This document shows positions 1,438 through 60,875 of a stretch of 64,000 nucleotides of DNA, piece after piece. Under the pieces are notes generated by a model. That model was not told the DNA's origin and did not search any database. It saw only the letters and a program-made list of their open reading frames with translations. The first letter of the stretch is position 1, and each line of letters starts with the position of its first letter. Location of the stretch: NCBI GenBank assembly GCA_951406725.2, contig OX597819.1:100192001-100256000 (forward strand). Reading direction: 5' to 3'. This stretch comes from Octopus vulgaris. Its lineage: Eukaryota. The position numbers were made by a program, and so were the translations under genes.

Positions 1438-1523
<86 letters not shown>

Positions 1524-1929
1524 TTTTGAATATAACTTAGTGTTAAACACCGTTATCAACAAGCAGTTTACGTTAAGTTATTCGACAACGAGACCAGGAC
1601 TTGTACAAAGAACCCGATGTAATCTAAAGATATAAAATAACGATATATCCTAAAAATAACTGAAGATAAATGGAGATAGTTATAGTTCCCAAATTTATTT
1701 ATTTCCTTATCTAACTAAACATTTTTGGGTGCCTAAAAGTTATCAACACCAACTTCCACAATATCATCTGTCACTTTTCCTTTTCGAATACATTTATTTG
1801 AACTCGACCTTTATGCACATGCGCACTCCCCCCCCCAAAAAAAAAAAACATATATATATAAATATAATCGTAGATATATATAAATATAATCGTAGATATA
1901 TATTTAATTATATATATATACATATATCA

Positions 1930-2075
1930 AGATCGTGTTTTCGATTCCCATACCGTTTGTGCGTTGTGTTCTTGAGCAACACTCTTCATTTCATGTTGCT
2001 TCAGTCCACTAAACAGTCCACTAAACTGTAAATGAGTAATCTTCGACGGACTAGCGTTCCGTTCAGGGGAAATAT
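1930..2075 (+). mobile_element. Partial tRNA-derived SINE (family C)
   Basis: gttgtgttcttgagcaacactcttcatttcatgttgcttcagtccact...aaatgagtaat matches the copy at 13525-13730. Confidence 0.7.
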
Positions 2076-2331
2076 TCGCCTGCTCTCCTAGCTATCTATA
2101 TGGCTTCATTTGAAACATACAGGAAGCGCAATGGTTGTTACCAGCGTTGTATAACAACATCCAATAGACTGGTCGAAATAGTGTTATGTATATTTGTAGA
2201 CATTGATATAAAAATTAGAAATATCATTGGAATACAATAGCATTATTTTCCAGCTAAATAAAACACCGTAAAGCTTCAACCGAATATACTGGAATCGACG
2301 TAACGAATATTTTAAAATTTCGAGTTCAGTG

Positions 2332-2406
2332 AATCTAGCTGATGAGGACTAGACGAATTTACGATGACAGGCGTATTAGGAATGTCCGAAACTCGAGTAC
2401 TAGATT
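2332..2406 (+). ncRNA. Type I hammerhead ribozyme, intact core
   Basis: AATCTAG-CTGATGA-GGAC(34 nt)GTCC-GAAA-CTC/GAG-TA-CTAGATT: 7-bp stem I, 4-bp stem II, palindromic loopless stem III, GUA cleavage triplet ending at 2399. Confidence 0.9.
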
Positions 2407-2765
2407 ATCCACTCTAGGTTGCTAATCTATCCGGTGTTCTTGCTAGAGGTAAGACGAAAACATTTTATATTCGTCCCCCGCACACATCTTTGCCAGTATA
2501 TATTCTGTGAAGCTTCACATAACGTTGCACGGTTATCGAATGCTATTTCCAGTGAAAATTGGTGCCTTGTTGTACCATTATTTTATACTTGTAGTTCTAC
2601 CTTTACAGTGCTTTATTTAGCTGGAAAATAATACTATTATATTCCAATATTATTTATATTTTTATGTAAAACTTTTTCACTGATTTCGGTACTATTCACA
2701 GCTAGGCATTCAAGCGAATATACTGGCATTGAATTAAGGAATAATTTGAAATTTCGTTTTCGGTG

Positions 2766-2840
2766 AATGTAGCTGATGGCGACTAACCGAATTTACGATA
2801 ACAGGCGTATTAGGAAAGTCCGAAACCCGAGTACTAGATT
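2766..2840 (+). ncRNA. Degenerate second copy of the 2332 hammerhead
   Basis: aatgtag-CTGATGG-cgac...gtcc-GAAA-cccgag-TA-ctagatt; A9>G and stem mismatches. Confidence 0.7.
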
Positions 2841-2852
2841 ATCTACTCTAGG

Positions 2853-3335
2853 TTACTCTTTTACTCTTTTACTCTTTTACCTGTTTCAGTCATTTGACTG
2901 CGGCCATGCTGGAGCACCGCATTTAGTCGAGCAAATCGACCCCAGGACTTATTCTTTGCAAGCCGAGTACTTATTCTATCGGTCTCTTACGCCGAACCGC
3001 TAAATACGCCACCATCGGTTGTTAAGCGATGTTGGGGGGACAAACACAGACACACAAACATACACACACAAACATACAGACACACAAACATACACACACA
3101 CACACATACACACACACACATATATATATACATATACGACGGGCTTCTTTTAGTTTCCGTCTACCAAATCCACTCAAAATGCTTTGGTCAGCCTGAGGCT
3201 ATAGTAGAAGACACTTGCTCAAGGTGCCACGCAGTGGGACTGAACCCGGAACCATGTGGTTGGTAAGCAAGCTACTTCCCACACAGCCACGCCTGCGGCT
3301 ATAGCTACTTGACACAAAGCCACTCCTGCGCCTAT
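2853..3335 (-). mobile_element. tRNA-derived SINE (family A) with internal (CA)n
   Basis: Reverse complement of head ggctgtgtgg..agtagcttgcttaccaaccacatggttccgggttcagtcccactgcgtgg, and tail ggtgctccagcatggccgcagtcaaatgactgaaac; same as 39345-39752. Confidence 0.9.
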
Positions 3336-3503
3336 TGTTGTTCATCTCTTCAGTGTTCATAATAGAATTTTTTTATATCCGTTGCCTGCACTTTTTGCTA
3401 GTATACATTCAGTAAAGCTTTACATTGGGCGTATGGTTATCCACTGCTACTTCCATTAGTACCTTGTGGCACAACTGTTTTATATTTTTATATATTGGGA
3501 GAG

Positions 3504-3615
<112 letters not shown>

Positions 3616-4639
3616 TATGTATATATTTAACAAAGGTAAAGTTAAATTCTCCTGTCATAGTGATTCATAAAGGACAGTTTCCCGGTTTCAATGGCGTATA
3701 GGTTTCCCAGAAGGTGGGGACGCCGGTCCGTCACGGGATTATTCATTTTTGCCAGCTGAGTGGATTGGATGAATCCGGTACCCTAATCACTAAAGCTGTC
3801 AAACACACACACACACACGCATACATACACACGCGCACGCACACATGCACATACATATGTTTGTGTGTATATATGTATGTATATATGTATGTATATTCAT
3901 ATATATACATACACAAACATACATACTTATATACATATACATGCAAATGTATATGCATATGCATATGTGCAGATGCTTGTGTGTATGTGTGTGTGTGTGA
4001 AGGGGAGTACCCATATACGAAAGCTTTGTTAGCATCAGTCAATATACCCTTTTCATGTAGTTTACAGATTTTCATATTATATATAGAAATTTCGTCTTTT
4101 TTCTTCATATTTTTGAGAAAAGCTATAAAAATAAAACGACTGAGCTAGAAAATCAAATTTTCATAAAAATCACAAAAACTAACAATGAATTAATATATAA
4201 ACATAAAAATGGAACAAGTGTTAAGAACTTTATTTCGGGCTATAGAGTCACAAAATCAACAACATGCGGTATACTGAAAAACAAATATAAATTAAAACTA
4301 GTAGCTATGGGAATAAGCAAACTTAATAAATCACGTAAGAACTTCATTGAAGAGATGAAGAATTTACTTTTCGTGTGGATTAAAGAAAAATAAATTGCTG
4401 GATAGTATAAGTTGGTCGATAATTTGTACAAAAGCCAAACAGTTGTTTGATTATCTTACAGCGAAATCTTCCAGTGGAACTGATACTACACTGCTGAATT
4501 TTCTTGCTTCAAAGGGTTTCTTTATCTTTTGTTTATTTATTTATCATTTTTATTCGACCAATGAATGTACTGTACCTGTTACTTAATGCTGCGGCTGCTC
4601 GGAATACGAAGATATATTTTATATTCATTTATATGTATT

Positions 4640-4940
4640 GTTTGCTCCTTCTCAAGCCACGCCTGGCTCATTCGGGCCGGTTTCCCGGTCTCTGTGGCGT
4701 ATAGGTCCCCCACCTGGACGGGACACCGGTCCGTCGCAGGTGAGCTGCAAGATGCAGGAGGAAAGAGTGAGAGAAAGTTGTGGCGAAAGAGTCAGCAGAA
4801 GTTCGCCATTACCTTCTGTCGGAGCCGCATGGAGCTTTGGTGTTTCGCTCATAAACACACACACCACCCGGTCTGAGATTCCAACCCGCAATCCCTCGAC
4901 CGCGAATTCGCTGCTCTAACCACTAGGCTATGTGCCTCCA
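4640..4940 (-). mobile_element. tRNA-derived SINE (family C-like)
   Basis: Minus-strand head ggaggcacatagcctagtggttagagcagcg...gggttggaatctc with A/B-box-like motifs; related piece at 3670-3790. Confidence 0.75.
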
Positions 4941-7480: not shown

Positions 7481-7771
7481 CCTTTCGACTGATTTGGTTC
7501 CAGAGTCCTTACTGCGATTTATTTTTATACTGTTTTGGTACATCATTGATTTTTTTGTTTTTTAAGGCTACAGCCAGCCATTCAGTTGAGACTCACAGCA
7601 CCATCAACAATCATGAATTAGTTAATCAAGTTAATCAATCAATCGATGTTGTTCTCGTACAATGCTTGTGCAAGAAGATTTTTTTAACATACATACATAC
7701 ATACATACATACATACAGATAGAGAGACAGAAAAACAGACACACATTTATATATGTAGTTATATACATACA

Positions 7772-10722
7772 TAAACAACATGGCGTTGGCTTTGCAGTGA
7801 GAAACTCACTACTCTCCTCAATAGAACCACCATCGGGAGGCACTGAGCGTATCCTCTCACTGCGCCTCTCGACTTCTTCTGGCTCAGTACATCTACTCAG
7901 CATCTATTCTCCCACTCTCAACAGCTCAGAGGAGACCAAGGACCAGTTCTACAAAGATCTCAACTGTGTCCTAGAAAATATACCAACGACTGAAAATATC
8001 TACCTTCTAGGGGATTTTAACGCTCGCGTGGGATCTGACCATGATTCGTGGCCCATTTGTGTTTGACACTTTGGTATTGGCAACATGAATGACAATGGTC
8101 AGAGACTACTCGAATTCTGCACATACCACAACCTGTGCATCACAAACACATTCTTCACCAGCAAGCCATCCCACAAGGCATCCTGGAGACATCCAAGATC
8201 TCACCACTGGCATCAGCTGGATCTCATCATTACACGGAGATCCTTTCTGAGTTCCACTCTATTGACCCGCAGTTACCACAGTGCGGATTGTGACACAGAC
8301 CACTCACTAATTAGAAGCAGGGTGAGGATTCTCCCTAAAAAAGTCCATCGCTCCAAGAAAGTGGGCCGACCACGCATCAACACCGCCAGAACCTCGGACC
8401 CTACACTGCGAAAATGTTTTGCTGCTTCTATCAAGGTTGCCCTCAGTAGCTGCCCAACCTCCTCTGCTGAAAGTAGGTGGGACTATATCAGGGAAGCCTT
8501 GTATACGACATCATTGGATACTTTCGGCATGAGAGAAAGGCAAAACCCAGATTGGTTCAATGCTGGGCTCTCAGAGCTGGAGCCAGTTATCGAAGCAAAG
8601 CGTGCAGCTCTGGTGCAATACAAGAGTGACTCTTCTACAAAGTCACTCGAAGAACTCAGAAAGGCACGAAATAAAACCCAACTGACAGCCAGATGCTGTG
8701 CAAATAGGTATTGGCAGGAAATCTGTCAGAGTATCCAGTCAGCTGCTGACAGGGGCGACACCCGTGGGATGTATGCTGGTTTGAAGAAGGCCCTCGGTCC
8801 ATCCGCAACCAAGTCAGCCCCTCTGATATCAACTACTGGAGATCTCATCAGGGATCAAGGCAAGCAAATGGATAGATGGGTGGAGCACTACCAGGATCTC
8901 TACTCACGGGAGACCACATTGTAGCTGAGGCTGCAGTCGAGAGTGTCAAGATCTTGCCAGTCATGTGCGAACTTGACAGTCCGCCATCTATAGCAGAGCT
9001 CACCAAGGCTGTTGACTCCCTAGCAAGAAATAAGGCTCTGGGAAAAGACGGCATCCCCTCAGAGATCATCAAAGCCGGCAAAACACCATCCTGCTTCGGC
9101 ACCTTCATGAGCTTCTGTGTCAGTGCTGGGAAGAGGGTACAGTCCCTCAGGATATGCGGGATGCCAACATCATTACGCTCTACAAAAACAAAGGTGACCG
9201 TGGTGATTGTAACAATTACCGTGGTATATCCCTTCTAAGCACTGTTGGAAAGACCTTTGCCCGCGTTATCCTGGCCAGGCTACAACTACTTGCTTCTCGA
9301 ATCTATCCGGAATCGCAGTGTGGCTTTAGAAGAAGCAGATCAACTATCGATATGATATTCTCCATACGCCAACTTCAGGAGAAGTCCAGAGAGCAGAAAA
9401 TGCCATTATATATGGCCTTCATTGATCTAACAAAGGCTTTTGACTCGGTAAGCAGAACAGGCCTCTTCCTCCTGCTCCAAAAAATCGGATGTCCACCAAA
9501 GCTGCTGAGGATCATCAAGTCTTTCCATGATGACATGCAAGGCACCATACAGCACAACGGTTCAACATCAGCCGCCTTCCAAATAAAAAACGGGGTAAAG
9601 CAAGGCTGTGTCCTCGCTCCTACATTGTTTGGCATCTTCTTCTCACTCTTGCTGTCACATGCCTTTCAGACATCAGATGATGGAGTGTTTCTGCACAGTA
9701 GAAGTGACGGGAAACTGTTCAATCTCTCGCGCCTGCGTGCCAAGACCAAAATCAGAAACGTCCTGATCAAGGAGATGTTATTTGCTGATGATGCCGCTCT
9801 GGTAACACACACAGAAGAAGCCCTCCAAAGGCTCATTAACTGTTTTGAGCAACCATGTAACGACTTTGGCTTAGCTATCAGCCTTAAGAAGACCAACATC
9901 ATGGGCCAGGCTACATCGGACATCCCAAACATACATATTGGAGACCACAGATTACAAGAGGTGGAGAAGTTTACCTATCTGGGCTCTACCGTCACCTACA
10001 ACCTATCCCTTGACGCTGAGCTCAATATACGCATTGGCAAGGCAGCTGCTGCGATGGCCCAACTCTCCAAACGGGCTTGGGACAACAATAAGCTGACCAA
10101 GACCACAAAAATGAAGATCTACCAGGCATGTGTACTCAGCACTCTACTGTATGGAAGCGAGACCTGGACGCTATACACACGCGAAGAGCGTCGCCTAAAC
10201 ATCTTTCACCTGCGCTGCCTCCGAAAAATCCTCCACATCAAATGGCAGAATCATATCCCCAACAAAGATGTCCTCAGGCAAGCAGGAATACCAAGCATGT
10301 TTGCACTCCTCACACAAAGACGTATGAGATGGCTTGGGCATGTTAGCCGTATGAAAGATGGCAGAATCCCCAAGGACATACTCTACGGAGCGCTTGCTAG
10401 GGGTACTAGGTCTGTGGGTAGACCGATCTTGCGTTACAAGGATGTTTGCAAAAGGGATATGAAGGCCTGCAACATCAACATTAGCGGTTGGGAGGCAGTC
10501 GCCGGCAACCGTGGAGAATGGCGACGTACAGTAAAAGAGGGTATACAGAGGAGTGACAGAAAGAGAGAGGAGAAATGGAAAGAAAGGAAGAGACATAAAC
10601 AAGAGACCATGGCACTACAATCAGCCAGGAACAGTCTTCGCTACGTTTGCAGTACCTGCCAGAGGGAGTGTTTGTCCAGGATAGGACTACACAGCCACAG
10701 CAAGAAATGTAACAGGAAATAA
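7772..10722 (+). mobile_element. RTE-clade LINE, 5'-truncated, APE + RT + C-terminal Cys/His motif; one stop (8064-8066) and two frameshifts (~8920, ~9085)
   Basis: GVGFAV, LLGDFNARVG, SWRHPRSHHWHQLDLII, DCDTDH (APE); NYRGISLL, QCGFR, FIDLTKAFD, GVKQGCVLAP, LFADD, FTYLGS (RT); CSTCQRECLSRIGLHSH. Confidence 0.97.
9154..10722 (+). CDS. RTE LINE reverse transcriptase ORF fragment (522 aa)
   Basis: Uninterrupted ORF covering the RT motifs and C-terminus; part of the disrupted ORF above. Confidence 0.85.
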   Translation: MRDANIITLYKNKGDRGDCNNYRGISLLSTVGKTFARVILARLQLLASRIYPESQCGFRRSRSTIDMIFSIRQLQEKSREQKMPLYMAFIDLTKAFDSVSRTGLFLLLQKIGCPPKLLRIIKSFHDDMQGTIQHNGSTSAAFQIKNGVKQGCVLAPTLFGIFFSLLLSHAFQTSDDGVFLHSRSDGKLFNLSRLRAKTKIRNVLIKEMLFADDAALVTHTEEALQRLINCFEQPCNDFGLAISLKKTNIMGQATSDIPNIHIGDHRLQEVEKFTYLGSTVTYNLSLDAELNIRIGKAAAAMAQLSKRAWDNNKLTKTTKMKIYQACVLSTLLYGSETWTLYTREERRLNIFHLRCLRKILHIKWQNHIPNKDVLRQAGIPSMFALLTQRRMRWLGHVSRMKDGRIPKDILYGALARGTRSVGRPILRYKDVCKRDMKACNINISGWEAVAGNRGEWRRTVKEGIQRSDRKREEKWKERKRHKQETMALQSARNSLRYVCSTCQRECLSRIGLHSHSKKCNRK

Positions 10723-13524: not shown

Positions 13525-13730
13525 GTGGAGGCACGTAGTTAAGTGGTTAGGGATGTTGGGCTCATGATCGTAAGAATGTGGTTTCGTTTCCTGGATGGGC
13601 GACACGTGTGCTCTCTTGAACAAAACACTTCATTTCACGTAGCTCCAGTCCACTTAGCTGGCGAAAATGAGTAATCCTGCGACAGACCTGTGTCCCGTCC
13701 AGGGAAAGAGAAACCGGCCCCTAATAAGTC
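13525..13730 (+). mobile_element. tRNA-derived SINE (family C)
   Basis: ggaggcacgtagttaagtggttagg...ggtttcgtttcctgg tRNA-like head, followed by the body shared with 1930-2075. Confidence 0.75.
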
Positions 13731-30545: not shown

Positions 30546-31697
30546 TTCCTGGCGAATAGAACACAACATGTTGTAGTTGATGGAGTCCACTCAAGCCCAG
30601 CATAAGTCACCAGCGATGTCCCTCAGGGGACTGTCTTGGGCCCGCTACTCTTTATAATTTACATAATCGACCTTTCCAGTGTCGTACACTACTGCAAAGT
30701 GAAAATATTTGCTGATGACACTAAGTTCCAGCAAATCATCAATGAAGAAGCAGACCGAACTCAACTCCAGTCTGATCTATATGCTGTGAGTCAATGGGCA
30801 GACAGAAACAAAATGCAACTGAACGGGGGAAAATTTGAGCTGATGCATTTTGGAAGAAATTCCTCACTAAAACAGCCATACTCTCTTCCTTCAGGGGAAC
30901 CGCTCACAGCCTCTAACAATATCAGAGACCTGGGTGTAATTATTGATGACAATCTCAGTTGGAGTGCACACATCAACAAGAAGGTCGATATAGCTCGTAG
31001 GATGAGTTCCTGGATCTTAAGAACTTTCCGGTCCAGAGAACAAGGTGTCATGATACCACTTTTCTCCTCCTTTGTACGGCCGCACCTCGAATACTGCTGC
31101 CCACTGTGGTCTACCCATACAAGACAAAACATCTCGAGGATTGAATCACCCCAGAGGGCACTCACTAAACGAATTGATATCATGGCTGCTCTCAATTATT
31201 GGGACCGCCTTAAAGCCTTGAAACTCTACTCTCTCCAGCGTCGCCGTCAGCAGTACATCATTTGAACGATGTGGAGAATATACCACTAACTTTGCCCAAA
31301 CGACCTGAACATTAGCTTCAAGGTTCATCCAAGACTGGGACCACGGGCCATACGTCCCCTGCCCAATTCAAGATCACAGTATATATGTACACTGCAACAT
31401 AATTTCTTTTCCTCAACAGGCCCTGCCCTATTTAACATTGTCCCGAAAGAGATCAAAGAAAAAGGGATCCCATCAACTTTAAACGGAGTCTGGATAGATT
31501 CCTTCAAGGATACCAGATAAGCCACTCATAATTGGATACAACTCACCCAACAAAAACTCACTACTTGAATGGATCATAAACAAAACCTGACTTAAACAGG
31601 ATTTAAATAATCCTATCAGGTGGTGCTATTAAGTTAGACATGGCCTGGACCAATATTTGGTCGAAACATATCTAAGTTTATCTAAGTCTAAGTTTAT
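30546..31697 (+). mobile_element. CR1-clade LINE 3' fragment (RT motifs 4-7 and thumb) with short tandem tail
   Basis: VPQGTVLGPLLFIIYI, KIFADDTK, IRDLGVII, RPHLEYCCPLWS, LKLYSLQRRR; tail tctaagttta/tctaagtcta. Confidence 0.92.
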
Positions 31698-35564: not shown

Positions 35565-35950
35565 TTCATTTATATGTTCATTTGACTGTGGCCATGCTGG
35601 AGCACCGACATAAAGGCTTTTAGCCTTTAAGAAATTGATTCCAAGACTTATTCTTTGTAAACCTAGTACTTATGTTATCAATCTCTTTATGCCGAAACGC
35701 TAAGTTCCGGGGACATAAACACACCAACATCGGGTGTGAAGCGATAGTAGAGAGACAAGCACTGACACAAAGACACGCACACACATAAACACATATACAT
35801 ATACGACGTGCTTCTTTCAGTTTCTGTCTAGCAAAACTAGTCACAAAGATTCGGTCGGTCCGAGGCTATTGAATAGACTAGGCCAAGGTGACACGCAGTT
35901 GGACTGAACCCATGTAGCGGGAAAGCAAGATTCTTACCACACAGCCACAC
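35565..35950 (-). mobile_element. tRNA-derived SINE (family A), diverged
   Basis: catttgactgtggccatgctggagcacc tail and cttaccacacagccac head. Confidence 0.85.
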
Positions 35951-39344: not shown

Positions 39345-39508
39345 ATGTGGCTGTGTGGTAAGTAGCTTGCTAACCAACCACATGGTTTCGGGTTCAGTCC
39401 CACTGCGTGGCATCTTGGGCAAGTGTCTTCTGCTGTAGCCCCGGGCCGACCAATGCCTTGTGAGTGGATTTGGTAGACGGAAACTGAAAGAAGCCTGTCG
39501 TGTTTATG

Positions 39509-39543
<35 letters not shown>

Positions 39544-39752
39544 TTGTGTGTCTGTGTTTGTCCCCCTAGCATTGCTTGACAACCGATGCTGGTGTGTTTA
39601 TGTCCCGGTTACTTAGCGGTTTGGCAAAAGAGACCGATAGAATAAGTATTGGGCTTTCAAAAGAATAAATCCCGGGGTCGAGTTGCTCGATTAAAGGCGG
39701 TGCTCCAGCATGGCCGCAGTCAAATGACTGAAACAAGTAAAAGAGTAAAAGA
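39345..39752 (+). mobile_element. tRNA-derived SINE (family A), full length
   Basis: ggctgtgtggtaagtagcttgct...gggttcagtccc head, central (TA/TG)n, tail ...gactgaaacaagtaaaagagtaaaaga. Confidence 0.92.
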
Positions 39753-40149
39753 ATATATGTAGGTGTACCTGCGATTATGAATACAAAACTGACAACAGAA
39801 AAATGACAGGGAGAAAAAAACTTGGTATGGATATCACAAATTAGAAACAGATTAAACCTGTCTTTGGAAGGAGGAAATTGTAGAATCGATTTAAAAAACT
39901 TAGAATAATTGAAAAATACACGTATTGTCGTGCATCAAGCCATAATAGAAACAGTCGGAAGTGAAGGAGAAACATAGAAGTCTCACAAACACCTAATAGT
40001 GGGCACATACACACACTTGATGCATGTGCCCTCTGTTAGGTATATATGAGCGTACTCATTATTTACTTTGGTTCACGGTTCGGCATCTTTGTGTTAATGT
40101 ATTTGTTGTTGGGGTATGTGTCTATAAATGTGATTGTTCGCTCGAAAAG

Positions 40150-43817: not shown

Positions 43818-44085
43818 TAGGCGCAAGCGTGGCTGTGTGGTAAGAAGCTTGCTCTCCAAACACGTGGTTTCAGGTTCTGTCCCACACTGTAGCACCCTGT
43901 GTAAATGTTTCCTACTATAGTCTCAGGCCTAGCAAAGCCTTGTGAGTGCATTTGGTACACGGAAACAAAGACGTTTGTACTAGGCTTTAACAAAAATGAG
44001 TCTTAGTGTCGACTGGTTCGACTAAAAATCTCAAGGCAGTACTCCAGCATGGCCGCAGCCAAATAACTGAAAGAATTAAAAGAAC
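43818..44085 (+). mobile_element. tRNA-derived SINE (family A), internally deleted
   Basis: ggctgtgtggtaagaagcttgct head and ctccagcatggccgcag tail. Confidence 0.85.
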
Positions 44086-46852: not shown

Positions 46853-47639
46853 TATATATATATATATACATACATACATACAAATATATATATATACAAA
46901 CTCGCATACATAGTTTTTATATATATAGACAGAAAAATATCTGAAGTATCTAAGAGAAAATATTGAGAAAACCATTTTTCTTCATAACGAACTATTACTA
47001 AGACTTAGAGATATTAAATTCACTTTCAGTGCGCATTAAGATACAACTCTTAACTAAGACACGAAACTAGTGGAAGTAGGTCGACGGTTTGTAAAGAAAG
47101 CAAAATTCCGAGAGTCTCGAAAATATTAAAATACAACACTTACTATATAAGTTAACCATGCTTTTCTGTAAGATACTGGCCATCTGATATTTTCATATTC
47201 ATCAGATTTTGATGAATATTAAACAAAGAAATGGAAGCATCAGATTAATTATCTGCTGTGTCCTTTCTGGCCTTTTGAAAACTGAGAGAAATAAGGCCAA
47301 GAATGACTTAATAAATAAATGCAAATGTCCAGTTGGTTCTTCGTAATTGCTAGAACATCGGAAGGGATGCCTTACCATATCTGTTTCACAACCTGGAAGG
47401 TTTTCAGACGGCAACTCCTGCGATAAGAATGATTCTAGGGTGCATCTATGTTTAGCTCCATTTGTACAACTCCTACAGCGTATAGCCACGACATTAACAT
47501 GTATGGAAAGCCATTAATCCACCATTAATAGTCTTGCCGGCATTTGCACCCTGGAAAGCCCATTCGAAATACATCACACACGCACGCACACACACACACA
47601 CATACACACACACACACACACATGCGCACACGCGTATTC

Positions 47640-47845
47640 TTTCGATCTTTTACTGGTTTCATTTATTTGACTGCGGTTATGCTAGAGCACCGGTTTAAAG
47701 GATCTTAGTGGAAGAAATCGACGCCAGGACTATTCTTTGTAAGTCTAGTACTTTTTGCACCGGTCACTGTACATAACCGCCATGCCTCGGGGACATAAAC
47801 ACACCAGCGTCGGTTGTCAAGTGATGGCATGGAGACAAAAACTCA
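47640..47845 (-). mobile_element. 3' half of a family A SINE
   Basis: tttgactgcggttatgctagagcacc...gacataaacacaccagcgtcggttgtcaag. Confidence 0.8.
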
Positions 47846-47911
47846 GACACTCATAAATATATACATCTCTCCATCTCTCTCTCTCTCTCTCTCTTTCTCT
47901 CTGAAATGAAT

Positions 47912-60234: not shown

Positions 60235-60875
60235 TTGCCTACAAGGGGCTAAACATAGAGGAGACAAACAAGGACAGACAAACGGATTAAGTCGACCCCA
60301 GTGCGTAACTGGTACTTACTTAATCGAGCCCGAAAGGATGAAAGGCAAAGTCAACCTCGGCGGAATTTGAACTCAGAACGTAGAGACAAACGAAATACTG
60401 CTAAGCATTTCGCTGGGTGTGCTAACGATTCTGCCAGCTCGCCTTATATATAGTGTCTTGCTCAAGAACACAACACGCATCCCGGTCCGGGATTCGAACT
60501 CACAACCTCACGGTTGTAAGCTCTACGCTCTGACCACTGAGACATGCGACTACTACTCTTTACCCATTACTTGTTTGAGTCATTTGACTGTGGCCATGCT
60601 GGAGCACCGCCTTTTAGTCGAGCAAATCGACTAGTACTTATTCTATCAGTCTCTTTTGTCGAACCGCTAAGTTACGGGGACGTAAACACACGGGCATCGG
60701 TTGTCAAGTGATATGGGGGGACAAATACAGACACACACACACACATATGTATACGACGGGCTTCTTTCAGTATCTGTCTACCAAATCCACTCACAAGTCT
60801 TTGGTTGGCCCGAGGCTATAGTAGAAGACACTTGCCCAAGGTGGTTGGTAAGCAAGCTACTTGCCACACAGCCCT
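60235..60875 (-). mobile_element. Three adjacent SINEs (families B, C head, A)
   Basis: 60235-60445 family B; 60450-60550 family C head; 60555-60875 family A; all on the minus strand. Confidence 0.88.

Follow-up and report, generated by a model that had tools for sequence, protein, structure and literature searches.

The window is a 64-kb stretch (64,000 nt) of the Octopus vulgaris genome (contig OX597819.1, positions 100,192,001–100,256,000) consisting of AT-rich animal DNA in which microsatellites, SINEs and LINE fragments abound. Near its left end lies a direct, head-to-tail array of about 1.7 units with a period of 434 nt, preceded by an inverted arm and interrupted by a SINE. Unit 1 (2275–2708, forward strand) is a full 434-nt non-coding repeat, with gapped homology to the next unit starting from ~2264. 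The 5′ part of unit 2 (2709–2857, forward strand) is identical to 2275–2423 at 128 of 149 positions at an offset of 434, a unit-to-unit divergence of about 14%. The inverted arm (2208–2273, reverse strand, 66 nt) is the reverse complement of 2601–2665 (blastn, 88% over 66 columns, E 6e-17), and its outer, left end corresponds to unit place 2665. Extension of the arm leftward to about 2165 was not significant (score 18; 72% of shuffles scored as high).

The SINE (about 2853–3335, reverse strand), which we take to be akin to the tRNA-derived octopus SINEs, was inserted later. It has a tail of 8-nt repeats (2853–2880), an inner CA/TA repeat and a duplicated head (a 33-nt tandem at 3270–3335, 84% match), and it breaks unit 2 at unit place about 2418–2421 with almost nothing lost. 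Sequence similarity revealed five further copies of this SINE in the window (35578–35948, 39347–39755, 43818–44083, 47635–47865 and 60554–60873), 68–85% alike. Beyond the SINE, unit 2 resumes at 3337: its 3′ part (3337–3487, forward strand, unit places 2418–2590) forms the right end of the insertion, with 113 of 151 ungapped columns identical and a local alignment score of 134, compared with a maximum of 73 in 1000 shuffles. A first-pass annotation, made from the letters of the window, had described a diverged copy 434 nt downstream, an inverted piece of ~70 bp before the array and a SINE within the second unit; the alignments bear out all three.

No second copy of the 434-nt unit was found elsewhere in the window. 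Tandem Repeats Finder did not report the 434 period over 1800–3700, ARAGORN found 0 genes over 1500–4500, and none of 13 element frames (at least 25 aa, within 2150–2900) had a Pfam match. To the right of the element, two copies of a 73-nt repeat (3665–3737 and 4668–4740) are 75% alike and lie 1003 nt apart. Farther on, 7635–10722 is a near full-length LINE-type element in three frames, with an open reverse transcriptase (RT) frame of 562 aa. This frame (9034–10719) matches Pfam RVT_1 (E 3.6e-34); its best named match, the best of 1531 matches with 8000 candidates scored, is a protein of Octopus bimaculoides (76% identity). A second, fragmentary RT frame is located at 30606–31265 (RVT_1, E 4e-8). 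Among 125 frames scanned, RT matches occurred only at these two LINE-type ORFs.

Each unit carries a hammerhead motif at the same place, and the first copy is complete. Copy 1 (2332–2406, forward strand) is a type I hammerhead with a predicted cut after A2399, the last letter of a GUA. Stem I (2332–2338 with 2400–2406) has seven Watson–Crick pairs out of seven. The core letters CUGAUGA (2339–2345) and GAAA (2388–2391) are followed by the palindrome ACUCGAGU (2391–2398), which forms stem III, and by A17 at 2399. Stem II (2346–2349 with 2384–2387) is paired at four of four positions and encloses a loop of 34 nt. All letters and pairs that define the type I core are present: C3 U4 G5 A6 N7 G8 A9 on one side, G12 A13 A14 A15.1 and U16.1 H17 on the other, with helices I–III and helix I open. 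The first-pass annotation had the anatomy of copy 1 right (the extent 2332–2406, a canonical core, a 7-bp stem I and a palindromic stem III), and a structural scan agrees; the 34-nt loop II and the mutated core of the second copy had escaped it. The same annotation called stem III loopless, while in the monomer it comprises two pairs and a 4-nt palindromic loop.

On both strands of the 64-kb window, copy 1 was the sole match of the structural scan. In 200 dinucleotide-preserving shuffles, loose hammerhead matches occurred at 0.075 per window and an equally strong match in none; the motif is far beyond chance. Self-cleavage of copy 1 at 2399 is predicted from its structure. Rfam gave no hammerhead match at the gathering score, nor did any of its 11 matches up to E 10 concern a hammerhead; the 34-nt loop II probably explains this. 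Folded in isolation, the 85-mer of copy 1 is no more stable than shuffles (z 0.02). Ensemble pair probabilities are 0.82–0.98 for stem I and about 0.4 for stem II, while stem III is unformed, in keeping with a helix of 2 bp that would require a partner.

Loop II (2350–2383, forward strand) has an inner UACG/CGUA hairpin in folds of domain II from both copies. It has equal length in copies 1 and 2, with four differences between them; position 2383 is U in copy 1 and A in copy 2 and in aligned relatives. As to a loop 1–loop 2 contact, a constrained fold carries stem I beyond internal loops, and loop II is atypical. An ATG within the core of the hammerhead starts an open frame of 27 codons (2341–2425), and the corresponding frame in copy 2 is also open (2775–2857) until the SINE. 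This frame has no Pfam match and is probably open by chance. The PAc ORF begins at stem II of its ribozyme (PMC11167929).

Copy 2 (2766–2840, forward strand) is damaged. It departs from the type I core by A9G (2779) and a C–C mispair at 10.1–11.1 (2780), and stem I has a G–G mispair (2769). Its stem III sequence is ACCCGAGU, with the palindrome broken at 2827. Predicted stem III duplex energies are −10.7 kcal/mol for copy 1 with itself, −6.0 kcal/mol for copies 1 and 2, and −1.3 kcal/mol for copy 2 with itself. According to Perreault et al. (PMC3088659), a core change or a mispair at 10.1–11.1 disqualifies a hammerhead match, most matches so disqualified are cryptic mutants in repeats, and rare core variants keep low activity. 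The four lesions in copy 2 make double or dimer cutting, and release of a monomer, improbable at this locus.

The first-pass annotation had proposed that cleavage at both sites would release a 434-nt monomer and that the ribozymes of the two tandem copies act as a dimer. Its picture of a retrozyme-like 434-nt unit with a palindromic stem III suited to dimers fits the family; the cutting mechanism does not carry over to the locus. Release of the monomer is unlikely with core, stem I and stem III of copy 2 damaged, and the proposed dimer would have to work through a duplex weakened from −10.7 to −6.0 kcal/mol. We therefore regard it as very unlikely that the locus itself is active, with both hammerheads cutting as a dimer and a 434-nt monomer released and circularised: copy 1 is complete, both GUA sites are intact, the mixed stem III duplex retains a predicted −6.0 kcal/mol and rare core variants show some activity (PMC3088659), but against this stand the four lesions in copy 2, the SINE in unit 2 and the divergence of about 14% between units. 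Today the locus may make at most one weak cut, at 2399, and most likely does nothing.

To find relatives of the unit we turned to sequencing runs. The search considered 24 runs, 20 containing part of the stretch and none recorded as RNA. Contigs of four runs (three DNA runs and one guessed to be RNA, which was counted neither for nor against expression) were aligned to 1930–2862 at 80% likeness; individual runs are denoted below X1, X2 and X13. Most of the thousands of aligned contigs belong to another repeat at about 1960–2025. To the left of the element, 1930–2075 is a decayed piece of this very abundant repeat, with a start like a tRNA B box, thousands of contigs on 1960–2025 and weak copies at 13614–13707 and 60452–60498. 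Another short repeated stretch (2122–2185) lies directly left of the inverted arm and has many contigs in all four runs.

Contigs that are 13–18% diverged (about 82–87% alike) cover the 434-nt unit itself from one end to the other in the three DNA runs. Contigs with another letter at 2352, inside the ribozyme, number at least 14, 22 and 14 in these runs; such counts are a lower bound rather than a copy number, and alleles may add contigs. Among the 32 contig pieces listed (16142 further), diverged pieces overlap along the whole unit: X13 2275–2564, X1 2300–2622, X13 2375–2656 and X1 2560–2747. At least five listed pieces, with 28–37 other letters, bridge places 2665–2709 with at least 31 letters on each side (X1 2560–2747 and 2579–2753; X13 2614–2801 and 2622–2851; X2 2618–2842), so those copies have no ORF between the end region and the next hammerhead. 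None of the 32 pieces listed spans two hammerheads. The first-pass annotation had made its reading depend on other genomic copies of the unit, and such copies exist, as diverged contigs in three DNA runs. The unit is a dispersed, non-coding, retrozyme-like repeat family.

At two damaged places of copy 2, 2779 and 2769, the relatives carry the canonical letters in 85–92% of their depth: A at 2779 in 477 of 528 (X1), 2697 of 2922 (X2) and 159 of 186 (X13) depth units, and C at 2769 in 421 of 472 (X1), 1429 of 1557 (X2) and 150 of 163 (X13). The 40 rows of relatives' letters listed (166 further) do not include 2780 and 2827. At 2804 and 2812, which correspond to 2370 and 2378 of unit 1, the two tandem copies agree with each other in letters absent from most relatives, as expected if both derive from one template or subfamily. 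Of the places where unit 1 has another letter (13 listed, 11 of them alignable), the segment behind the SINE, 3337–3487, shows the relatives' letter at nine and therefore belongs to the repeat family. One contig from X2, a run with another organism label, crosses the left junction (1930–2275, 21 other letters and 12 gap letters); the insertion is thus probably shared and old. Depth folded on the unit in three runs rises from ~2680 round to 2523–2584 and falls over 2585–2677. We considered this shape as a sign of 3′-anchored truncated copies and did not count it as evidence, since contig depth cannot rank parts of the unit and a related family could give an equal shape. Exact-pattern scans for the ribozyme in contigs from metagenomes, prokaryote genomes and viruses gave 0 matches, and scans for a SINE motif, chosen as a host marker, likewise gave 0.

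These data also bear on the idea of a local duplication or satellite that contains a chance hammerhead-like string and was never mobile through RNA. Such an origin would agree with the presence of just 1.7 units, the lack of another copy in the 64-kb window and the absence of an Rfam match. It is hardly credible given that no such motif appeared in 200 shuffles, that in three runs the unit is represented by many diverged contigs in which A9 and the stem I pair are retained, and that the array has an inverted head.

The anatomy points to how the family member got here. Insertions of Penelope-like elements (PLEs) consist of partial tandems, often with an inverted 5′-truncated copy at the 5′ end; they have a 30–40 bp tail and, in several clades, a bias toward (TA)n (PMC8557442). 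The octopus locus combines a partial tandem with an adjacent inverted, truncated copy at its 5′ end, the footprint described for Penelope-like insertions; the first-pass annotation had seen the arm and missed this likely meaning. A (TA)n run (3506–3612) starts 19 nt to the right of the insertion, in a window where about 60 (TA)n runs of at least eight units make such runs common. The outer ends of the insertion correspond to unit places 2590 and 2665. At this single locus, whose right end may be eroded, they are separated by 75 nt, and their positions are about 190 and 266 nt 3′ of the cut site. Purified PAc protein nicks both target strands and extends on both, prefers AT-rich DNA and starts at two internal RNA sites downstream of the hammerhead (PMC11167929). 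Octopus genomes contain PLEs, some of them recently active (PMC13282606).

We conclude that about 2208–3487 is probably one old, decayed insertion of a non-coding family of the animal-retrozyme type, copied by a Penelope-like enzyme into AT-rich DNA. The anatomy, the family status, the non-coding 434-nt unit and the damage to copy 2 are direct observations. As to the course of events, a tandem source copy would have been transcribed into multimeric RNA. Paired hammerheads, joined via their palindromic stems III, could cut such a multimer at GUA into 434-nt monomers (the stretch between the predicted cut sites, 2400–2833 on the forward strand, represents the monomer from an intact array), and these may become ligated circles. 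A Penelope-type protein with RT and GIY-YIG domains would have nicked both target strands, and reverse transcription would have begun at internal positions of the RNA, about 190 and 266 nt 3′ of the cut site. A long cDNA of about 1.7 units would have produced the direct array, and a short one of 66 nt the inverted arm. The long cDNA would have crossed two cut sites, which implies an uncut multimer or a circle as the template. Later, the SINE would have split unit 2 and mutations would have disabled hammerhead 2.

A single event predicts equal divergence of the arm and the 5′ units, as found (58/66 versus 128/149, p 0.83). Several observations count against this reading. Relative to unit 1, divergence is greater behind the SINE (113/151) than before it (p 0.02), a difference that one clean event does not predict. 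The distance of 75 nt between the outer ends differs from the 30–40 bp of PLE tails. PAc insertion in vitro does not need the hammerhead (PMC11167929). Self-pairing of the 434-nt monomer is no greater than that of shuffles (circular fold −90.8 kcal/mol, z −0.94 versus 60 shuffles, for a decayed copy). The GIY-YIG family had no match in the 125 window frames scanned (112 from 223 long frames, and 13 element frames). A target-site duplication was not significant: the best match near both junctions, 14 of 17, was equalled by 2.5% of shuffles, by 3.75% of AT-rich places and at eight of 60 places before (TA)n runs. Another candidate for the duplication, 2189–2204 with 3491–3506 (13 of 16 by eye), scores below the 14/17 match and was discarded.

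Twin priming by a LINE enzyme would account for the inverted arm as well, another point against the Penelope reading. Twin-priming geometry is known from L1 work. On the unit circle the direct array starts (about 2697–2709) shortly after the arm (2601–2665), at a distance of 32–44 nt from the arm's outer end, and the window holds an RT-bearing LINE-type ORF at 9034–10719. That an RTE-type LINE enzyme inserted a retrozyme-like RNA is nonetheless quite unlikely: the right end has no poly(A) or short-repeat tail, unlike the adjacent SINE, the target duplication is not significant, and the (TA)n neighbourhood and the partial tandem are PLE traits.

Alternatively, the locus could be a fragment of an autonomous PLE, the unit being a pLTR/UTR or the product of an internal deletion, with full-length members encoding RT and GIY-YIG elsewhere. 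The architecture equals that of PLE insertions; stem III of several Hydra-clade hammerheads in PMC8557442 starts with ACUC and ends with GAGU, as here; and Xenopus retrozymes and pLTRs share homology (10.64898/2026.07.22.740005). We consider this origin unlikely, as at least five diverged contigs from three runs join 2665 directly to 2709, other contigs continue from the hammerhead to 2622–2656, and none of the 13 element frames matches Pfam. The repeat may share an end with an autonomous partner. Compared by eye, it does not resemble the Hydra-1_oBim hammerhead or the untranslated ends of octopus Naiads (three consensus sequences), as given in PMC8557442 (files S2 and S5). The idea that the hammerhead derives from a Naiad ‘half core’, whose halves lie 35–50 nt apart (the spacer here is 42 nt), was rejected, as octopus Naiad ends look unlike it by eye. 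Three ribozyme motifs of 9–11 nt, searched against the available part of the PMC8557442 supplement, gave one unrelated match in a Chlamys sequence.

Returning to the Penelope-type insertion, the inner end of the arm (2601) nearly meets the right end of the array (2590), so that arm and array together make two units less ~10 nt; by a rough count, chance would produce such a near-meeting about once in 20. If the meeting recurs in other copies, the inverted head of Penelope-type insertions would represent the interval from one internal start site to the other, and the second subunit of a dimeric enzyme would have copied it. A bolder proposal, doubtful at present, is that octopuses harbor an undescribed retrozyme family whose intact source copies still make 434-nt circles, in which a conserved and structured 34-nt domain II, overlooked by curated models, replaces or gates the usual loop–loop contact, and whose insertions record two primings on one RNA. 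If true, it would provide structural proof of retrozyme movement by PLE proteins.

Retrozymes as a kind are already known from corals to salamanders, which makes this fossil locus by itself only modestly interesting. We found no cephalopod retrozyme described in the literature searched, which included few subscription papers (the supplement of PMC7229834 may list some), and the available text of the 2026 Octopus vulgaris repeat annotation (PMC13282606) uses neither ‘hammerhead’ nor ‘ribozyme’. A PLE survey used a hammerhead spacer of 7–17 nt (PMC8557442). A 34-nt loop II falls outside this range and is invisible to Rfam, so counts of families of this type may be too low, and claims that a clade ‘lacks hammerheads’ may go too far. 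Support for Penelope-mobilised animal retrozymes has so far come from co-occurrence and pLTR homology. The octopus copies, through the positions of their ends and through their inverted heads, would offer a direct test of the claim.

The closest PLE parallels are PLE insertions and pLTR hammerheads such as that of PAc, with non-autonomous derivatives such as MRC1 among them (PMC8557442, PMC4209133, PMC11167929). Like these, the octopus element is a partial tandem with an inverted truncated 5′ copy, it ends downstream of the hammerhead, and its helix III is palindromic; it also lies in AT-rich DNA near a (TA)n run, of a sort common in the window. Unlike PLEs, it has no RT/EN ORF (no RT or GIY-YIG ORF was found in the element, as an autonomous PLE would have), and its outer ends are ~75 nt apart, not 30–40. 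It also differs from minimal PLE hammerheads in having no insertion between 9 and 10.1. A loop 2 of about 30 nt or more is shared with the hammerheads of Selaginella PLE-X1, where in two elements the long loop 2 is marked as deviating from the canonical structure (PMC8557442 file S2); those are endonuclease-less coding elements of a plant, unrelated in sequence to the octopus repeat.

A relation of tandem hammerhead repeats to PLEs equal to the one suggested here was proposed in the preprint of Li et al. (10.64898/2026.07.22.740005), where retrozymes with units of 51–972 are argued to be non-autonomous PLE derivatives. Their basis is co-occurrence and pLTR homology in 31 vertebrates, three insects and one coral, with no mollusc in the available text; the insertion-end architecture that we use is absent from that text. 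Predicted frog retrozyme dimers showed cutting in one of nine cases (10.64898/2026.07.22.740005). Li et al. take two consecutive complete hammerheads as the mark of an active element. As copy 2 is damaged, the octopus array lacks such a pair, and we class the locus as a relic of a retrozyme-like family whose cutting and circles are putative.

The best agreement is with metazoan non-LTR retrozymes, described as low-GC tandem repeats of about 170–400 nt with type I hammerheads, whose helix III of 1–2 bp has a palindromic loop, which are cut best as dimers and whose circles accumulate (PMC7229834, PMC4209133, PMC6155905). Examples are the 350–390-bp repeats of Mytilus galloprovincialis and the 330/350-bp repeats of axolotl (Cervera and de la Pena 2020, PMC7229834); in the available text the mussel family (350–390 bp) is the nearest described mollusc case. 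The octopus unit resembles them in being non-coding and tandem, with a type I hammerhead per unit, a GC content of 35.5% (the criterion being <45%), a 7-bp helix I and a helix III of 2 bp with a palindromic tetraloop. It departs from them in its length of 434 nt and in a loop II that is 34 nt rather than short; the locus also has an inverted head and a single complete ribozyme. To judge from these features, the element behaves as a member of the retrozyme kind. It does not represent an autonomous PLE. Among known retrozymes it is distinctive in its 34-nt loop II, its unit length and its host.
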